A stretch of DNA of 64,000 nt from Octopus vulgaris. Taxonomy: Eukaryota. The notes under the pieces were generated by a model. The model was given only the letters and a program-made list of their open reading frames with translations. It did no database searches and was not told the origin of the DNA. A program made the translations under genes and the position numbers. Location of the stretch: NCBI GenBank assembly GCA_951406725.2, contig OX597831.1:48298001-48362000 (forward strand), read 5' to 3'. Below, piece after piece: positions 1,108-58,947 of the stretch. Every line of letters starts with the position of its first letter. Position 1 is the first letter of the stretch.

Positions 1108-1856
1108 AACAACAAACAAGATGAGGACAAATATCCATCAAATGTAAGTGATCTATCAAACTTGCCTTTCTCTTTGACATCAATGTCAGCATGGAGAAAT
1201 AAGTTTTGCAAGTATAGGCAGTTACTGGTCTTTTATAAGCCACTTTACCCAGGCCTGTAGCCTTGAACAATAGTTTTCAAGGTTCAAATCTGTAGTCTTA
1301 CAAGATATATGGAGACCTAGAGAAAATGAGTGATTAGCTTTGCATTTTCCATTTAATGGGAGATTTAATCAGTTATACCCCACCCTTAAAAACCAATGCT
1401 GGAAACGAATATTTTACATTTTGTAGTCACTATGTAAGATTGTCAGAGACCTGTGCAGTTTATCTGTATGTAATGAGCCAACATATAGGATACTATATGT
1501 GTTTTTTTTTTTTTGTGGGGACTACAAGAAAAAGCAATTAAACTGCCCTGTTATCACACCCAATCATCTGAAAGGGGAGGAGATAAATTGGACGATAAAG
1601 TACTGAATGCACTATATCTGAAAATACAAAGGATAGGCTGACTATGTCTGCATTGACTATAATCATAGAACAACTCAAACAGAAATGACCTGGATATAAA
1701 TAATTACATGTATATGTAGACTACAAGTCAATGGAGGATCCTCTATGTGGTTATTCAATATGTTAAAAATAGCAGTCACATCTCTTTTATGTTACACATT
1801 GGCTAATATAGTCTAAAATATAGATAGGATGACCATAGCTAGAGGATTTTTGGCTA

Positions 1857-2104
1857 TCATCATCATCATTTAGTGTCCACTAACCATGCTAGCATGGGTT
1901 AGATGGTTCAACTGGGGTCTGGGAAGCCAGAAGGCTGCACCAGGCCCAGTCTGATCTGGCAATGTTTCTACGGCTGGATGCCCTTCCTAATGCCAACCAC
2001 TCCATGAGTGTAGTGGGTGCTTTTTACGTGCCACCGGCACAGATGCCAGACGAGGCTGGCAAACGGCCACGATCGGATGGTGCTTTTTACGTGCTACTGG
2101 CACG
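1857..2104 (-). mobile_element. 3' end of the RTE family seen at 28345-30857
   Basis: (CAT)n tail, ccatgctagcatgggtt...ctggatgcccttcctaatgccaaccactcc, and about 1.4 units of the 62-bp repeat. Confidence 0.85.
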
Positions 2105-11028: not shown

Positions 11029-11340
11029 CATTGATCATTGACGTTATAAATAAAGTGTTTATGTGACAACTTGTCCTGCTAGAAATACCAGATAAATCTT
11101 TTTGTAATCACGTTTTATTGTTTAAGAAAAGGAAGCTTTACATTATTTATTTAAGCACTTCACTCCCCATAAAGCATAAGACATTGATCATTGACGTTAT
11201 AAATGAAGTCTTTATGTGACAGCTTGTCCTGCTAGAAATACCAGCTAAATCTTTTTGTAATAGCATTCTATTGTTTTAGAAAAGGAAACTTTATCCTATT
11301 TACTTAAGCACTTCACTCCCCATAAAGCATAAAACATTGA
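11029..11340. repeat. Tandem duplication, 153-bp unit x2
   Basis: Unit starts (cattga) at 11029, 11182 and 11335; the two units are highly similar. Confidence 0.9.
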
Positions 11341-27808: not shown

Positions 27809-28160
27809 GATACTATAAGTTATGGCATATGAACATTGATTGCGGGCCTTCATTTTTATTTTTAGGGTAGCAAATAGCCAATGGTGTAATGGTAAAGAGT
27901 TAAGTAGTAAAATCTTAGCCCTTTACCTGTTCTGTGTATCACATATAATACAGAGGAAAAATTTTCCTGGGGTCCATGTGTCATATATAATACACATTCA
28001 GAATTTTTCACCAACCACCAGACTAATTTGGGACTTATTAAAATAAAACATTATATTACTCAAGATATATGAAACAAGGGCTTTCTAATGGTGTGTAAGT
28101 AAGAACATACTTTGGACCGGTGAAGGGTTCAAGATGGTGTGTTGTTGTTATTTTAATCCC

Positions 28161-28345
28161 AGGCGCAGGAGTGGCTGTGTGGTAAGTAGCTTGCTTACCA
28201 ACTGCATGGTTCCAGATTAATTCCCACTGTGTGGCACCTTGGGCAAGTGTCTTCTACTATAGCCTCGGGCCTACCAAAGCCTTGTGAGTGGATTTGGTAG
28301 ACAAAAACTGAAAGAAGCCAGTCATATATATATATATATATATAT
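28161..28345 (+). mobile_element. SINE A 5' half (split by the RTE insertion)
   Basis: Head through gaagcc and (TA)n. Confidence 0.9.
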
Positions 28346-28513
28346 CATCATCATCATCATCATCATTTAACATCCGCTTTCCATGCTAGCATGGGTTGGA
28401 CGGTTCAACTGGTGTCTGGGGAGCCCGGAGGCTGCACCAGGCCAGTCAGATCTGGCAGTGTTTCTACAGCTGGATGCCCTTCCTAACGCCAACCACTCCG
28501 AGAGTGTATTGGG

Positions 28514-29105
28514 TGATTTTATGTGCCACCGACACAGGTGCCAGACAAGGCTAGCAGACGACCACGCTCGGATGGTGTTTTTTATGTGCCACCGACACAG
28601 GTGCCAGACGAGGCTGGCGAACGGCCACGCTCGGATGGTGTTTTTATGTGCCACCGACACAGGTGCCAGACAAGGCTGGCAGACGACCACGCTCGGATGG
28701 TGTTTTTATGTGCCACCGACACAGGTGCCAGACGAGGCTGGCGAACGGCCACGCTCGGATGGTGTTTTTATGTGCCACCGACACAGGTGCCAGACAAGGC
28801 TAGCAGACGACCACGCTCGGATGGTGTTTTTTATGTGCCACCGACACAGGTGCCAGACGAGGCTGGCGAACGGCCACGCTCGGATGGTGTTTTTATGTGC
28901 CACCGACACAGGTGCCAGACAAGGCTAGCAGATGACCACGCTCGGATGGTGTTTTTTTATGTGCCACCGACACAGGAGCCAGATTAGGCTGGCGATCGGC
29001 CACGATTGGATGGTGATTGTTACGTGCCCTCAGCATGGAGGCCAGTCGGTGCGGTACTGGCTACGGCCACGTTCGGATGGTATTTTTGTGTGCCACCGGC
29101 ACTAG
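28514..29105. repeat. Tandem array of 62-64-bp units (~9.5 copies) in the RTE 3' UTR
   Basis: atgtgccacc recurs at 28521, 28584, 28646, 28708, 28770, 28833, 28895, 28959; diverged units near 29022 and 29088. Confidence 0.95.
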
Positions 29106-29258
29106 TACCACAAAGATACAAATTCCATTGATGTTCATCTATTTTGATTTTGTTTGATTTTCACTTGCCTCAACAGGTCTTCACAAGTGTCACAAGAAGG
29201 AAGGTATGCACAGGTGGACTGACTACGTCCCAGGTAGGGGCCACGGGTTATGGCCTGA

Positions 29259-30856
29259 CTAGTCTTGCCGGGTCTTCTCACGCACAGCATACTTCCATAG
29301 GTCTCGGTCTCTAGTCATTTCCTTGGTGAGACCTAAAGTTCGTAGGTCGTGCTTCACCACTTCGTCCCAGGTTTTCCTGGGTCTACCTCTTCCACAGGTT
29401 CCCTCAACTGCTAGGGTGTAGCACTTTTGCACACAACTATCTTCAGCCATTCTCGTCATATGACCATACCAGCGCAGCCGTCTCTCTTGCACACCACAAC
29501 TGACGCTTCTTAGGTTCAACTTTTCTCTCAAGGTACTTACACTCTGACGATTATGAACACTGACATTACACATCCATCGGAGCATACTGGCTTCATTTCT
29601 TGTGAGCTTACGCATATCCTCAGCAGTCACGGCCCATGTTTCACTACCATGTAGCATGGCTGTACGTACACATGCATCATAAAGTCTGCCTTTTACTCTG
29701 AGCGAGAGGCCTTTTGTCACCAGCAGGGGTAAGAGCTCTCTAAACTTTGCCCAGGCTATTCTTACTCTAGCAGTTACACTTTCAGCACACCCACCCCCGC
29801 TACTAACTTGGTCTCCTAGGTAGCGGAAGCTATCAACTACTTCTAGTTTGTCTCCCTGGAACGTGGTAGAAGTTGGTCTCTGCACATTTCCAGTGTTTAT
29901 TTCTCCTGAGCATCTGCCACATACGAAAACTATCTTCCCAGTGAGCCTACCTTTGACATTGCTGCACCTCTTATGTGTCCATAGCTTACACTTGGTGCAC
30001 CTTATAGAGTTTCTACCTACACCTTTTCTACAGATCGAGCAGGGCCATCTACCTGAAGTCGTTTGTGGTTGGTCCACCTTCCTACTTATTAGGACTTTGG
30101 TTTTGGCTAGGTTGATTCTAAGGCCCTTCGATTCTAATCCTTGTTTCCACACCTGAAACTTCTCCTCCAGTTCTGATAGTGACTCAGCAATTAGAGCAAG
30201 GTCATCAGCATATAGGAGCTCCCAGGGGCATCCTGTCTTAAATTCTTCCGTTATTGCCTGGAGGACTATGATAAATAGGAGGGGGCTGAGGACTGAACCT
30301 TGGTGGACCCCAAACTCTACCCGGAATTCTTCACTGTACTCGTTGCCAACCCTCACCTTACTAGCTGCGTCTCTGTACATGGCTCGCACAGCTCTCACTA
30401 ACCATTCATCTATCCCTAGTTTCCTCATTGACCACCAGATAAGGGATCGGGGGACCCTGTCAAAGGCTTTCTCTAAGTCAACAAAAGCCAGGTACAAGGG
30501 CTTACCTTTGGCTAGGTATTTCTCCTGCAGCTGTCTTACCAGGAATATAGCATCAGTAGTACTTTTCCCTGGCACGAACCCAAACTGCATATCATCTAAG
30601 CTTACTCTCTCTCTAATTAACTGGGCTATAACCCTCTCCGTAACCTTCATTACCTGATCCAACAGCTTGATGCCCCTGTAGTTATTTGTATCTAGGGCAT
30701 TGCCTTTACCTTTGTAGCAGTTGACTATTATGCTGCTACACCAGTCATTGGGTATGACTCCTTCGTGTATCACCTGGTTAACTATACGGGTGACTATGCT
30801 ATAGCCGACACTACCAGATATTTTGAGCATCTCTGCAGTAATTCCTGATGGGCCTG
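29259..30856 (-). CDS. Non-LTR (RTE) reverse transcriptase, ~530 uninterrupted codons, 5'-truncated, with internal C4HC3 finger
   Basis: GPSGI, NYRGIKLL, QFGFVPG, DLEKAFD, QGSVLSPLLF, YADD (30201-30212), FRYLG, GSETW, WYGH, GRGRPRKTW. Confidence 0.92.
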
Positions 30857-30857
30857 A

Positions 30858-31080
30858 TATGGTTGTGTGTCTGTGTTTGTTCCCCCAACATCGCTTGACA
30901 ACCGATGCTGGTGTGTTTACATCCCCGAAACTTAGTGGTTTGGCAAAAGAGACTGATAGAATAAGTACTAGGCTTACAAAGAATAAGTCCTGGGGTTGAT
31001 TTGCTTGACTAATTGGCGGTGATCCAGCATGGCTGCTGTCAAATGACTGAAACAAGTAAAAGAGTAAAGAGTAAAAGAGA
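30858..31080 (+). mobile_element. SINE A 3' half
   Basis: tgtgtctgtgtttgttccccc...gactgaaacaagtaaaagagtaaagag. Confidence 0.9.
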
Positions 31081-32350: not shown

Positions 32351-33392
32351 TAAATGATAAAAGATAAACATGAAAGCAAACAAGGAAGCTTTTGTTTACA
32401 TAGAAATGAATCATAATACGACCTTCTATTCCACCTATTTATTATTCATTAAAACGAAAATATAAATATTCATAATTATATTTTTATTTGTCATTATGTG
32501 AAGAAGTATGAGGGGCAGCAACAGAAGCAATAGAAGCACCACAGAATGGTCAGAAATTTTGAAATGGTTTTTCAACTAAGGAAAGTTAATGAAGTTAATA
32601 TTCAGATTTAAGCTCCCCAAAACTGGCAGCTAGATCATAAAAGCATGACAAAGAAATAAATTTAGGTGAGATGTGAACTTGTACTCTGTCACCCTAGTCG
32701 CATTGAGAGGGTTGATGGTTTTAATTTGTCATTTAATTCAACACCACCACATGGTCTTTGGTCCTTGGTCTTTGGTTTTACCATTACACAATAATGGTGT
32801 AATGCTCCAGCCTTCACCAGGAAACATCATCATCATTGTTCTAACATCTTCTTTTCTATGCCTGCATGGGTCAGACTCTTGACGTTGTCATCATAATTTT
32901 TACTCTCATTTTTTCCTATGCTTAACGGGGTGGATGGATTTTCTCCCGAGGTTGGACATGCCTTGCTATTTAGCATGTATTTTTCCTATTTTCCTTGTAA
33001 GATCAATTACTTGAGATCAGACTTCACAACATTTTCCTATGTCTTCTTTGGTCTCCCTCTTATATATTTACTTTCCACTTGAATATTTTGGCATTGTTTT
33101 TCAAATATGTCCTTCAATTACAGTCTTCCTTCTTGCACACTACAGTGAATTCCTCTTATAACCAGTTTATCTCTCTTAACCGTTTAGCATTCAGATTACT
33201 CTGTCAAAAGGCAATACTTATTTATAAACATTGTTTTGAATCAATCCTGCATTATTTTATAACTTTGAAATTTTGATAATGTGACTGATTAATTTTAGAG
33301 AGACATTGTTGTATAGATGTAAGAAACTGGATTTGGCCAGTTTAAACATAAAACATGTAGAATATTTGGGCCACATGTGGCCAGTTTAAATA

Positions 33393-33804
33393 TCATCATC
33401 ATCATCGTTTAACATCTGCTTTCCATGCTAGCATGGGTTGGACGATTTGACTGAGGGCTGGTGAACCAGATGGCTGCACCAGGCTCCAATTTTGATCTGA
33501 CAGAGTTTCTACAGCTGGATGCCCTTCCTAACGCCAACCACTCCGAGAGTGTAGCGGGTGCTTCTACGTGCCACCAACATGGGGGCCAGTTAGGCGGTAC
33601 TGGCAATGACCTCGCTCAAATGTTTTTACACATGCCACTGGTGCAAGTGCCAGTAAGGCGACGCTAGTAATGATCACGCTCGAATGGTGCCTTTTACATA
33701 CCACCGGCATGGAAGCCAGATAGCCGCTCTGGCAATGATCACGCTTGGATGGTGTTCTTAGCACCCTACTAGCATAGGGCACAAGTGCCAGTAAGGTGAT
33801 GCTG
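33393..33804 (-). mobile_element. 3' UTR of a related RTE with ~4 diverged array units
   Basis: (CAT)n tail, conserved terminal ~170 nt, GCCAG..loop..CTGGC units. Confidence 0.85.
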
Positions 33805-39739: not shown

Positions 39740-40171
39740 GTGGTGTGGTTGTGTGGTAGGAAGCTTGTTTTTAGTCCCACAGCATGGCACCTTGGGAAAG
39801 TGTCCTCTACTATAGCCTTGGGCCAACCAAAGCTTTGTCGGTGGATTTGGTAGACAGAAGCTTAAAGAAACCCATTGTATCATTGCATGTATATATATAT
39901 ATATATATACGTGTGTGCATGCGTGCGTGTGTGTACACACACACATGCACACATATATATATATATATGTATCTATACATCATCATCATCATCATCATCA
40001 TTTAGCGTCCGCTTTCCATGCTAGCATGGGTTGGACGGTTCAACTGGGGTCTGTGAAGCTGGAAGGCTTCGTCAGGCCCAGTCAGATCTGGCAGTGTTTC
40101 TACAGCTGGATGCCCTTCCTAACGCCAACCACTCCGTGAGTGTAGTGGGTGCTTTTTACGTGCCACCTGCA

Positions 40172-50862: not shown

Positions 50863-51272
50863 CATCCTCATCATCACCGTCGTCGTCGTTTAACGTCCGC
50901 TTTCCATGCTGGCATGGGTTGGACGGTTTGACTGATGGTTGGCAAGCCAGAAGGCTGCACCAGGTCCCAATCTGATCTGACAAAGTTTCTACAGCTGGAT
51001 GCCCTTCCTAATGTAAACTGAAAGTGTAGTGGGTGCTTTTACATGCCACCAGCATGAGGGCCATTGAGGAGATACTGGCATCTGCCACGTTCAGATGGTA
51101 CTTTTTACATGACACCGGCACAGGAGCCAGTCCAGCAGCACTGGCAATAACCATGCGCGAATGGTGTTTTTTATGTGCCAGTGGCACAGGAGCCAGTCAG
51201 GCGACACTGGCAACGACCATGATTGAATGGTGCTTTTTACATGCCACCAGCATGGGAGCCAGTCAGCGTCCC
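50863..51272 (-). mobile_element. 3' UTR of a related RTE with ~4 diverged array units
   Basis: (CAT/CGT)n tail, conserved terminus, GCCAGT-loop-ACTGGC units. Confidence 0.85.
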
Positions 51273-52602
51273 AAGGAAAACTAAGGGGTGGATTATGTTT
51301 GCAGCCCAAATTAATCTTTTAGCTTTTAAACCAACGATATCCAGCCTTAATTAATTAGCTTGTTTTATGTTCAAACTGGCTATATCTGGCCTCTTATACC
51401 TACCCTACAGTGTCATTTGAAAAATAAACAATCACGTCATCAAAATTTTGAAGCTATGAGATAATGCATGATTATTTCAAAACAATGTGAATATATAAGC
51501 GTTATATTTGACAGAGTTATATGAATGCTATGGGGTGAAGTCTACACGAATTTTCAACGAAAGTCCCTATTTTTTATTTCTCCTCCTCTAGCTAAAATAA
51601 AGGTATATAGCTTAGTGATTAGTGTTGCATTTATAGTCATAAGATTATAAACTCAATTTCTGGACCAGGCAGTGCCTGGCATTCTTGAGCAAAAGTAATT
51701 CACTTCATGTAAATGAAGAAAACACCAAAATTCTATTTAATCAGTTTCTAGTAATGCTCTCTGGGACTAATAAATTTATAAAAACAAAGATATTTCAATG
51801 ATGGCCATTGCCTCATCTTTTAGACATACCTTATCCCATAGTTATCCAATATGCCTTTCTCTTTTTTAAGGATGGTATGATTTGCACAAATTTGGTTGCT
51901 ATTTTCAGCATATTCAGCAACCACATACAGGCTCCATCGTTGGCTCATTTTCTACTTAGTACTTTGTAGAGATATCCATCTATTTAACAGAGTTTTGGCT
52001 TCAAAGCTCAGATTAACAGGATTAGTTAATCGGAATATAAAGAAATGAATGAAACAGAAAGCTTGGATGGTGGTGTTGGAGGTGGTGGTGGAGCAAATTT
52101 TTAATGAAATGCAATGACAATGATTAATTGATTAATTTTGAAAATAATGAAAACTTTCATAGGAATTAGTAAAATGACAAAATTTGTTATTATCAAATCA
52201 GTATTTGAGACACAACAAAAGCCTCTTACATAAAAATTATGATGCAACTCGTAAAATCAAATCTGAGTTCTTTAAACTGGATGGTTTGGAATTATAGAAT
52301 CATGAGCAGTATCAGGAAGCTGGTATCAAAATGGTTAATTATGCACAAGAAATAACATTGTGTTTGTATTTTCATTATTTTTTATTCTTCATTCTTTAAC
52401 TTGTTTCAGTCATTTGACTGCAGCCATGCTGGAGCACAACCTTGAAGGGTTTTAGTCGAAAAAATCAACTCCAGGACATACTCTTTTCTAAGCTTAGTAC
52501 TTATTCTATTGGTCTCTTTTGCCAAACCGCTAAGTTACAAGGACATCAGTTGTCAAGGAATGGTGAGGGACAAACAAAGATGCAAAGATAGACACACCTA
52601 AA

Positions 52603-57935: not shown

Positions 57936-58465
57936 GTATGTATATATACATACATACATCCATTCATACACACACACATGCACACACATACATATACTAT
58001 TTAATAAACACAATACATGTTTTTATGTGCCACTATTAGTTTCATGTGCTGAAAACATCCCAAACAATGTTTTATAACACTTTGGACATCTTGGCACAGT
58101 CATCAGGTACAGCACATGGCATAACGAACTAAAAAAAAGTGAATACACACACACACATATATGACAGAATTCTTTCAGTTTCCATCTACCAAAGCTATAG
58201 TAGAAAACACTTGCCCAAGGTGCCTCACAGTAGAACTGAACCCAGAACTTCTTACCACACAGCAATGCCTGCAATTCACTGGGGTCGGTCCATTTAACTG
58301 AAAGTCCTTCAAGATGGTGCTCCAGCATGGCCACAGACTGACTGAGACAAGTAAAAGATAAAAGATAACCACTTGTGCTAAACCATTCACTTAACCCAAT
58401 GACCCCAGTTTGTCTCATCTGAAATCATATCTCCTATCACCCCTATTACATTTCTTATCATCAGT

Positions 58466-58947
58466 TCTTATTTCTTTATTGCCCACAAGGGGCTAAACAC
58501 AGGGGGGACAAACAAGGACAGACAAAGGGGTTAAGTTGATTACATCGACCCCAGTGCATAACTGGTATTTAATTTATCGACCCCGAAAGGATGAATGGCA
58601 AAGTCGACCTCCGTGGAATTTGAACTCAGAACATAATGGCAGACGAAATACCACTTAGCACTTCGCCCAGTGTGCTAACATTTCTGCCAGCTCGCTGCCT
58701 TATCATCACTTCATATTTCTTTATTGCCCATATGGGGCTAAACACAGAGGGGACAAACAAGGACAGACAAAGGGATTAAGTTGATTACATCGACCCCAGT
58801 GCATAACTGGTACTTAATTTATCGACCCCAAAAGGATGAAAGGCAAAGTCGACCTTGGCAGAATTTGAACTCAGAATGTAACGGCAGACGAAATACTGCT
58901 AAGCATTTCACTTGGCATGCTAACATTTCTGCCAGCTCGCTGTCTTT
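58466..58947 (-). mobile_element. Two tandem SINE B copies (58466-58701, 58713-58947)
   Basis: Both collinear with 27576-27808. Confidence 0.9.

Follow-up and report, generated by a model that had tools for sequence, protein, structure and literature searches.

LINEs of the RTE clade that encode an endonuclease, a reverse transcriptase (RT) and a PHD finger in one protein (EN-RT-PHD; P0004, P0036; loci L327-L405) are characterized by a single long ORF, a terminal stem-loop, a microsatellite tail and the GGAAGGGCATCC domain, all of which they have in common with the element described here. In these relatives the domain lies at the 5' end, the 3' UTR measures a few dozen bases and an array of repeats is missing from it (0/33), whereas the family considered here carries the domain at its 3' end, behind an array, and begins, in the young subfamily, with tandem monomers of ~650 bp. 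A second related group is represented by bipartite non-autonomous RTEs and RTE-derived SINEs (Bov-A, RTESINE, Ceph-SINEs; PMC5786205). According to the accessible part of that account, a piece of the RTE 5' UTR is fused to their 3' end, the same domain recurs in independently born SINEs, its role is a matter of speculation, and no autonomous element with such a cassette is given. These elements are non-coding; in the present family, which also has the 5'-UTR piece at its 3' end, the cassette forms the tail of an element with a long ORF and its upstream edge has been amplified.

A constant stem with a variable loop is also found in the 3' UTR of the stringent LINEs ZfL2-1/2 (PMC4176376, in its accessible part). 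There, a single terminal hairpin is concerned and its binding has been demonstrated, whereas the hairpins of the present family are numerous, internal and predicted from sequence. RTE-2_OV (PMC9115989) is, like our element, an RTE-clade LINE of an octopus; the part of its description available gives a C2H2 finger and a 3' UTR that is mostly microsatellite starting at the ORF end, and mentions neither array nor PHD, the two elements being set apart by description only. Retrozymes and ribozyme-bearing retroelements resemble the array in having tandem structured-RNA repeats tied to retrotransposition; the array differs in that no ribozyme core was found in it with Rfam or an HDV-like descriptor. 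Tandem UTR units of variable number occur also in other LINEs, as the 5' monomers of mouse L1 and the 3' repeats of HeT-A and TART, with 5' sequence repeated near the 3' end. Mouse L1 monomers are promoter units and HeT-A and TART are telomeric elements, in contrast to the present array, which has been seen only as a sequence. Outside Repbase, Dfam, subscription journals and supplements, the literature searched holds no account of this array, nor of a PHD finger in an RTE RT ORF.

The window, a stretch of 64,000 nucleotides from the 2.8-Gb genome of Octopus vulgaris (contig OX597831.1, positions 48,298,001 to 48,362,000), carries one copy of the element on its minus strand, on which all features given below lie. 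Its 5'-truncated RTE ORF (29259..30858) covers RT, thumb and C-terminus, is 49-57% identical to full-length EN-RT proteins and is open across 533 codons up to the stop codon at 29259-61; the stop-to-stop frame continues beyond it to 31082 and reads there as flanking repeat DNA. RVT_1 matches the frame with E=1e-32 (RT domain at 30087..30689, E=1.4e-32). A PHD-like zinc finger is inserted after the RT core (29910..30041), with E=5e-4, below the Pfam cut-off; in homologues P0004 and P0036 the finger scores above it. This insertion had been put forward, together with the array, as a candidate for an undescribed system. Homologues with endonuclease, RT and PHD are, however, numerous: 1069 reach E<=1e-50 out of 8000 scored, and PF00628 was found in 63 of 120 homologues, among the matches listed. 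A wide lineage therefore shares the insertion.

The truncated window copy lacks the N-terminal APE endonuclease. L317 and L322 have frames that stay open for 900 and 966 codons and align to P0004 from residues 172 and 113, and the long frames of the family contain the APE endonuclease, as a weak match, within the single ORF. A non-LTR-type RT, a 3' stem-loop with microsatellite tail and frequent 5' truncation are present as well. The element is assigned to the RTE-clade LINEs by its architecture and by features characteristic of RTEs. It departs from the layout of its relatives, in which the 3' UTR is short and the 5' UTR holds a conserved domain; this layout sets it apart from them and does not define the clade. 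We are dealing with a variant of an RTE LINE, not with a new system.

The array had been reported to lie directly downstream of the RT ORF. In fact a spacer of ~150 nt (29106..29258), in which a short piece of the ORF end recurs, lies between it and the stop codon. Further along the element come a partial unit and two diverged leading units of 66 and 63 nt (28960..29105), a part also present in other copies of the young subfamily, and seven alternating A/B units of 62-64 nt with conserved cores GCCAG/CTGGC and GTGY/GCAC (28512..28959). Nine full units start at 28522, 28585, 28647, 28709, 28771, 28834, 28896, 28960 and 29023, with the partial one at 29089, in agreement with the ~9.5 units counted by the sequence-only reading. 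Its A/B alternation of the first seven units agrees with the output of TRF, which at 28512-29028 gives a period of 62 (8.3 copies) together with a dimer period of 125 (95% match). The array is probably a slippage-built series, variable in number, of ~62-66-nt units behind the RT ORF. Its last unit is overlapped by a copy of the RTE 5'-UTR domain (28460..28535), consisting of an A-rich-loop hairpin homologue, which makes the overlap, a small hairpin and the GGAAGGGCATCC motif. The 3'-terminal stem-loop (28367..28410), common to distant relatives, is likely to be the RT recognition site, and an (ATG)7 microsatellite tail, then (TA)n, completes the element (28346..28366). The related 3' ends announced at 1857, 33393 and 50863 were located at 1856, 33392 and 50868: a truncated one with one full unit (1856..2103), one of subfamily S33 with three diverged units (33392..33804) and an older one of subfamily S51 with about four diverged units (50868..51300). 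One more (39976..40167) is truncated within its last unit.

More striking than the hairpins is the architecture. About 75 nt just 3' of the array have their counterpart in the 5' UTR of RTEs that are only distantly related (best match L330, E=1e-8). These relatives comprise 79 metagenome loci, 33 of them with a readable 3' end, which is short and made of a stem-loop, then a microsatellite. In L328, L329, L330, L337, L364, L369 and others the GGAAGGGCATCC motif is located at the 5' end, upstream of the ORF. For two of nine aligned relatives (L330, L348) the similarity also takes in the end of the last unit, an A-rich-loop hairpin. In the family of the window, the 5'-UTR domain is inside a 3' UTR of about 0.9 kb, and the 5' ends of six long young-subfamily copies showed neither sense-strand unit nor head motif. 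Those copies start in tandem monomers of ~650 bp with a TATA-like word and differ in their truncation points within the monomers, in the manner of the promoter monomers of L1. Among head motifs in loci of this genome, 340 of 383 classifiable ones are followed by the 3' stem-loop, and an endonuclease ORF follows none of the other 43 (0/43). Twelve old copies look bipartite, with a pyrimidine-rich leader in place of the ORF end. The simplest history would be that a coding element captured the tail of a bipartite non-autonomous RTE. Both this displacement of a 5'-UTR domain to the 3' end and the origin of the array escaped the sequence-only reading; they are of greater interest than the likeness to repeat-spacer arrays on which it had remarked.

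Several minor observations concern the same regions. The monomers of the young subfamily (upstream of the ORF in L409, L411, L412, L418, L422, L427; also L436-L441) carry (CT)n tracts. In L418 a polypyrimidine tract ends in CAG, with an ATG close behind; it lies some 20 codons ahead of the endonuclease motif and looks like a putative 3' splice site just before the ORF. Old bipartite copies with a tandem double head domain occur at L160:7434-7680, L126:1279-1530, L038:2396-2640 and L152:4435-4680. The distant relative L331 has its own tandem duplication of ~66 nt (L331:70-215) just upstream of the GGAAGGGCATCC 5' motif, which hints at duplication of this position in further lineages.

Most copies of the family are short fragments consisting largely of array and tail. 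A random 1-Mb sample contained 89 matches to the terminal domain, 67 of them near-complete; at least one unit was present in 42 of the 67 and more than seven in none. Extrapolation from these 42 in 1 Mb gives roughly 10^5 array-bearing copies genome-wide. Subfamilies were defined from seven targeted searches, 30 loci each, in which unit counts are biased toward the length of the query. Ranked by divergence from their consensus, they are Sg (7.8%, about 1 unit per complete array), S51 (5.3%, 5 units), Sa (2.9%, 3 units), S33 (1.9%, 5-6 units in three complete copies), Se (1.7%, 4 units), the young subfamily of the window (1.0%, 9-26 units) and Sb (0.9%, 2 units). Tabulated in this way, unit number does not track subfamily age. 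The array had been called expandable, which is true of the young subfamily and fails as a requirement: since Sb is equally young with 2 units, long arrays are unnecessary for recent activity, and further units beyond the second are probably almost neutral. Young arrays differ by single units, dimers and larger blocks. L019 contains a 9-unit offset repeat, and in L027 a block of five units is repeated with three shared mutations, each also found in other copies; the L027 repeat suggests expansion in genomic DNA after insertion. Subfamilies differ by 4-50% at four-fold sites of the ORF. Sa (L191-L220) and the young subfamily have different bases at 23 of 46 four-fold sites of the ORF end, while their arrays and tails are close, a pattern that suggests a 3'-end swap between RTE lineages. 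In L324, three ORF ends of the family are arranged head-to-tail within one locus.

The origin of the unit can be followed in Sg, the oldest subfamily examined. It contains a 26-nt tandem duplication (19/25 identical), the first copy of which corresponds to hairpin 2 and the second to hairpin 3 and the A-run. Behind the latter stands a duplicate of the final ~105 nt of the ORF and the neighbouring UTR. In S51 and S33 the units begin with a sequence that agrees with the start of this duplicate at 8-9 of 11 positions and in the same place; taken alone, the direct match of the unit starts to the ORF falls short of significance. From this positional link we infer that the unit is an Sg-type ORF-end duplicate shortened by deletion, and hairpin 1 would therefore be largely a relic of coding sequence. 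A further short repeat in Sg is derived from coding sequence; the 3' end of this family thus duplicates readily.

The unit had been described as folding into three hairpins. Inverted repeats of all three are present in the sequence, and hairpins 2 and 3 do appear in the consensus fold of 22 unit types, from which hairpin 1 drops out. Pairing across the 22 representatives is 96% for hairpin 2, 94% for hairpin 3 and 80% for hairpin 1, whose outer pair is broken in 10 of 22. Folding energy is no better than that of shuffles, either for single units (z from -0.9 to -1.4 on the sense strand, from -1.0 to -2.1 on the other) or for the whole 3' UTR (z = -0.82); the antisense A unit (z -2.1) folds better than the sense units. 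In trimers the probability of hairpin 3 is below 0.5 in 22 of 24 unit types. The check for covariation yielded a score of 0.120 vs 0.121 in shuffles, with 267 of 500 shuffles as high, the variation being too low to show covariation. No compensatory change was seen in either core among the 22 unit types, and a two-sided change affects 1 of 14 pairs, the outer pair of hairpin 3, by way of two CpG-type transitions. The preference for G.U pairs on the sense strand, to which the sequence-only reading had appealed, came down to two changes, and there is no bias over 24 unit types: by eye, about six stem changes keep a sense-strand G.U and about five leave A.C, several of them at CpG. What is conserved are the cores and their complementarity; the pairing itself is a prediction. 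The ancestral A-rich-loop hairpin across the A-run was considered as another conserved fold and dropped, since by eye its pairing fails in about 6 of 28 junction rows, which makes it less well kept than hairpin 3.

More can be learned from the substitutions. Copies decay neutrally after insertion, and the selection test therefore uses differences between lineages. Of 874 full units, 685 were clustered, those of the young subfamily having been down-sampled to 80, and gave 24 unit types, each in at least 4 loci, small clusters being excluded. Along their tree the stems of hairpins 2 and 3, which were selected after seeing the data and in units gathered by profile HMM, accumulated 0.61 substitutions per column vs 2.30 elsewhere (permutation p=4e-5), and the deficit is also found in G/C columns only (p=9e-4). 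Private mutation rates in 598 non-young units are slightly lower in stems, 0.029 vs 0.035 at other sites (p=0.018), so that 37% of lineage substitutions are expected to fall in stems. The number that does is 7 of 53 (p=1e-4), or 7 of 49 (p=8e-5) when the indel-prone hairpin-2 loop is excluded; recurrent sub-lineage variants fall in stems in 2 of 31 cases, a count whose data overlap with those of the former. Lineage substitutions therefore avoid the stems, with about a third of the number expected. Stems mutating as fast as loops, which the sequence-only reading had named as speaking for a passively carried minisatellite, are thus not what is observed, but the covariation on which it also relied is not observed either. 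Its notion of selection can be retained for hairpins 2 and 3 and has to be given up for hairpin 1. Stem mismatches at lineage level do occur and are carried by successful subfamilies (ACCAG/CTGGC in S33). The stems of hairpins 2 and 3 are likely under purifying selection, probably as RNA docking sites.

Selection on the cores could also act on sequence motifs that are read on DNA (transcription factor sites, an enhancer, an internal promoter) or in single-stranded RNA, the pairing being incidental and the relocated domain transcriptional. Conservation without covariation or strand bias would be expected of such motifs, some non-stem positions are nearly invariant too, and the neighbour of the array is a 5'-UTR domain of a kind speculated to bind regulators (PMC5786205, accessible part). 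Against this, the arms of hairpin 2 stand 6-11 nt apart while the stem is kept; because of this variable loop a hairpin fits better than a DNA site of fixed spacing. Moreover, the 5' ends of 84 untargeted copies are unclustered, the 33 that could be phased being spread over unit positions 1-60; there is therefore no sign of an internal start producing short elements. Nor do these 84 copies give any hint of RT pausing or of a cleavage site. On balance we regard the reading of the cores as plain sequence motifs as unlikely. The opposite extreme is a neutral minisatellite, carried passively, whose stem constancy reflects ascertainment, a short history or the repair of inverted repeats by template switching. 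In this family any stretch of the 3' end may be duplicated, coding sequence and head domain included, unit number is indifferent to subfamily age, blocks are repeated in L027 (5 units) and L019 (9-unit offset), folding is unremarkable and the relatives do without an array (0/33), all as such an origin would have it. However, the stem deficit withstands controls for composition, CpG and mutation rate as well as exclusion of the loop (p=8e-5), and wobbles and mismatches, which palindrome repair should erase, persist in lineages. Neutrality of the stems consequently appears improbable to us.

If the stems are selected as RNA, their partner might be a host protein involved in stability, export, localisation or shielding from silencing, and not the RT of the element. 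The same selection signal would then apply, and RT priming needs no array, because the relatives' 3' end carries the terminal stem-loop alone; the array has no Rfam match beyond chance, and we think this reading quite improbable. A self-cleaving ribozyme, or an array processed into ~62-nt RNAs in retrozyme-like or repeat-spacer-like fashion, deserves hardly any credence. The array does derive from a 5'-UTR region, and self-cleaving ribozymes are possible at RTE 5' ends (cited in the accessible part of PMC5786205; twister variants, PMC8501958, likewise in part), but no Rfam ribozyme was recognised at E<=10, truncation points are unphased, and the loops are inherited, not acquired. The Rfam scan of 28000-29400 gave two chance matches. 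A loose HDV-like descriptor, applied without positive control, hit 0 of 24 unit types as trimers and nothing convincing in the relatives; its matches in the whole UTR are at chance level, 19 of 30 shuffles also matching. A scan for sigma-70 promoters and terminators, with models unsuited to animal DNA, stayed at chance level too. A CRISPR-like repeat-spacer array was rejected, as the loops are about 24 inherited types recurring across loci and there is no sign of acquired spacers; the likeness to such arrays had rightly been called superficial, the loops being slowly mutating variants.

We propose, and give it an even chance, that the array arose by slippage or template-jump duplication and that two stems of each unit are held as RNA hairpins bound by the element's own protein. 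A LINE protein whose binding is general for the stem and specific for the loop has a precedent in the L2 clade (PMC4176376, in its accessible part). The history would run as follows. An autonomous RTE would have captured its 3' end from a bipartite non-autonomous RTE and acquired a new 5' end of the monomer type; this architecture is that of present copies, and its order of assembly is our suggestion. The 26-nt motif seen duplicated in Sg may then have provided the ancestors of hairpins 2 and 3. A duplication of ~190 nt reaching into the ORF end, such as Sg contains, would have followed and presumably been shortened to the 62-66-nt unit. The source of the array would accordingly be the upstream edge of the 5'-UTR domain sitting before the terminal stem-loop. 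Units may have multiplied further, their loops and linkers diverging while the stems were held, as the substitution statistics indicate, and the young subfamily would gain and lose whole units and multi-unit blocks, partly after insertion.

A bolder version, which we offer as a speculation with little chance of being right, is that a LINE moved an RNA domain from its 5' UTR to its 3' end and amplified the flank of this domain into a multivalent platform of hairpins, loading several RT molecules. If such a platform exists, short 5'-truncated copies would keep both recognition signals, subfamilies would compete for RT by array number and loop identity, and a new route to LINE cis-preference would be opened, revealing the role of the conserved RTE 5' domain. 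A coding element that has this domain at the other end, beside a natural series of 1-26 units, provides ready constructs for the question of RT binding, and intermediates of the array's birth are still present in the genome. Should the stems do nothing, the family would still show clearly how a minisatellite is built up within a LINE.

The surroundings of the element in the window are rich in other repeats. It is flanked by two of them (28163-28345 and 30860-31060), the former with what we take to be a tRNA-like head, and a (TA)n tract marks its 3' junction; (TA)n is found at one or both ends of many copies of the family. Two-copy tandems of other repeats, 245 and 153 bp in size, are located at 58454-58946 and 11029-11340 of the window.
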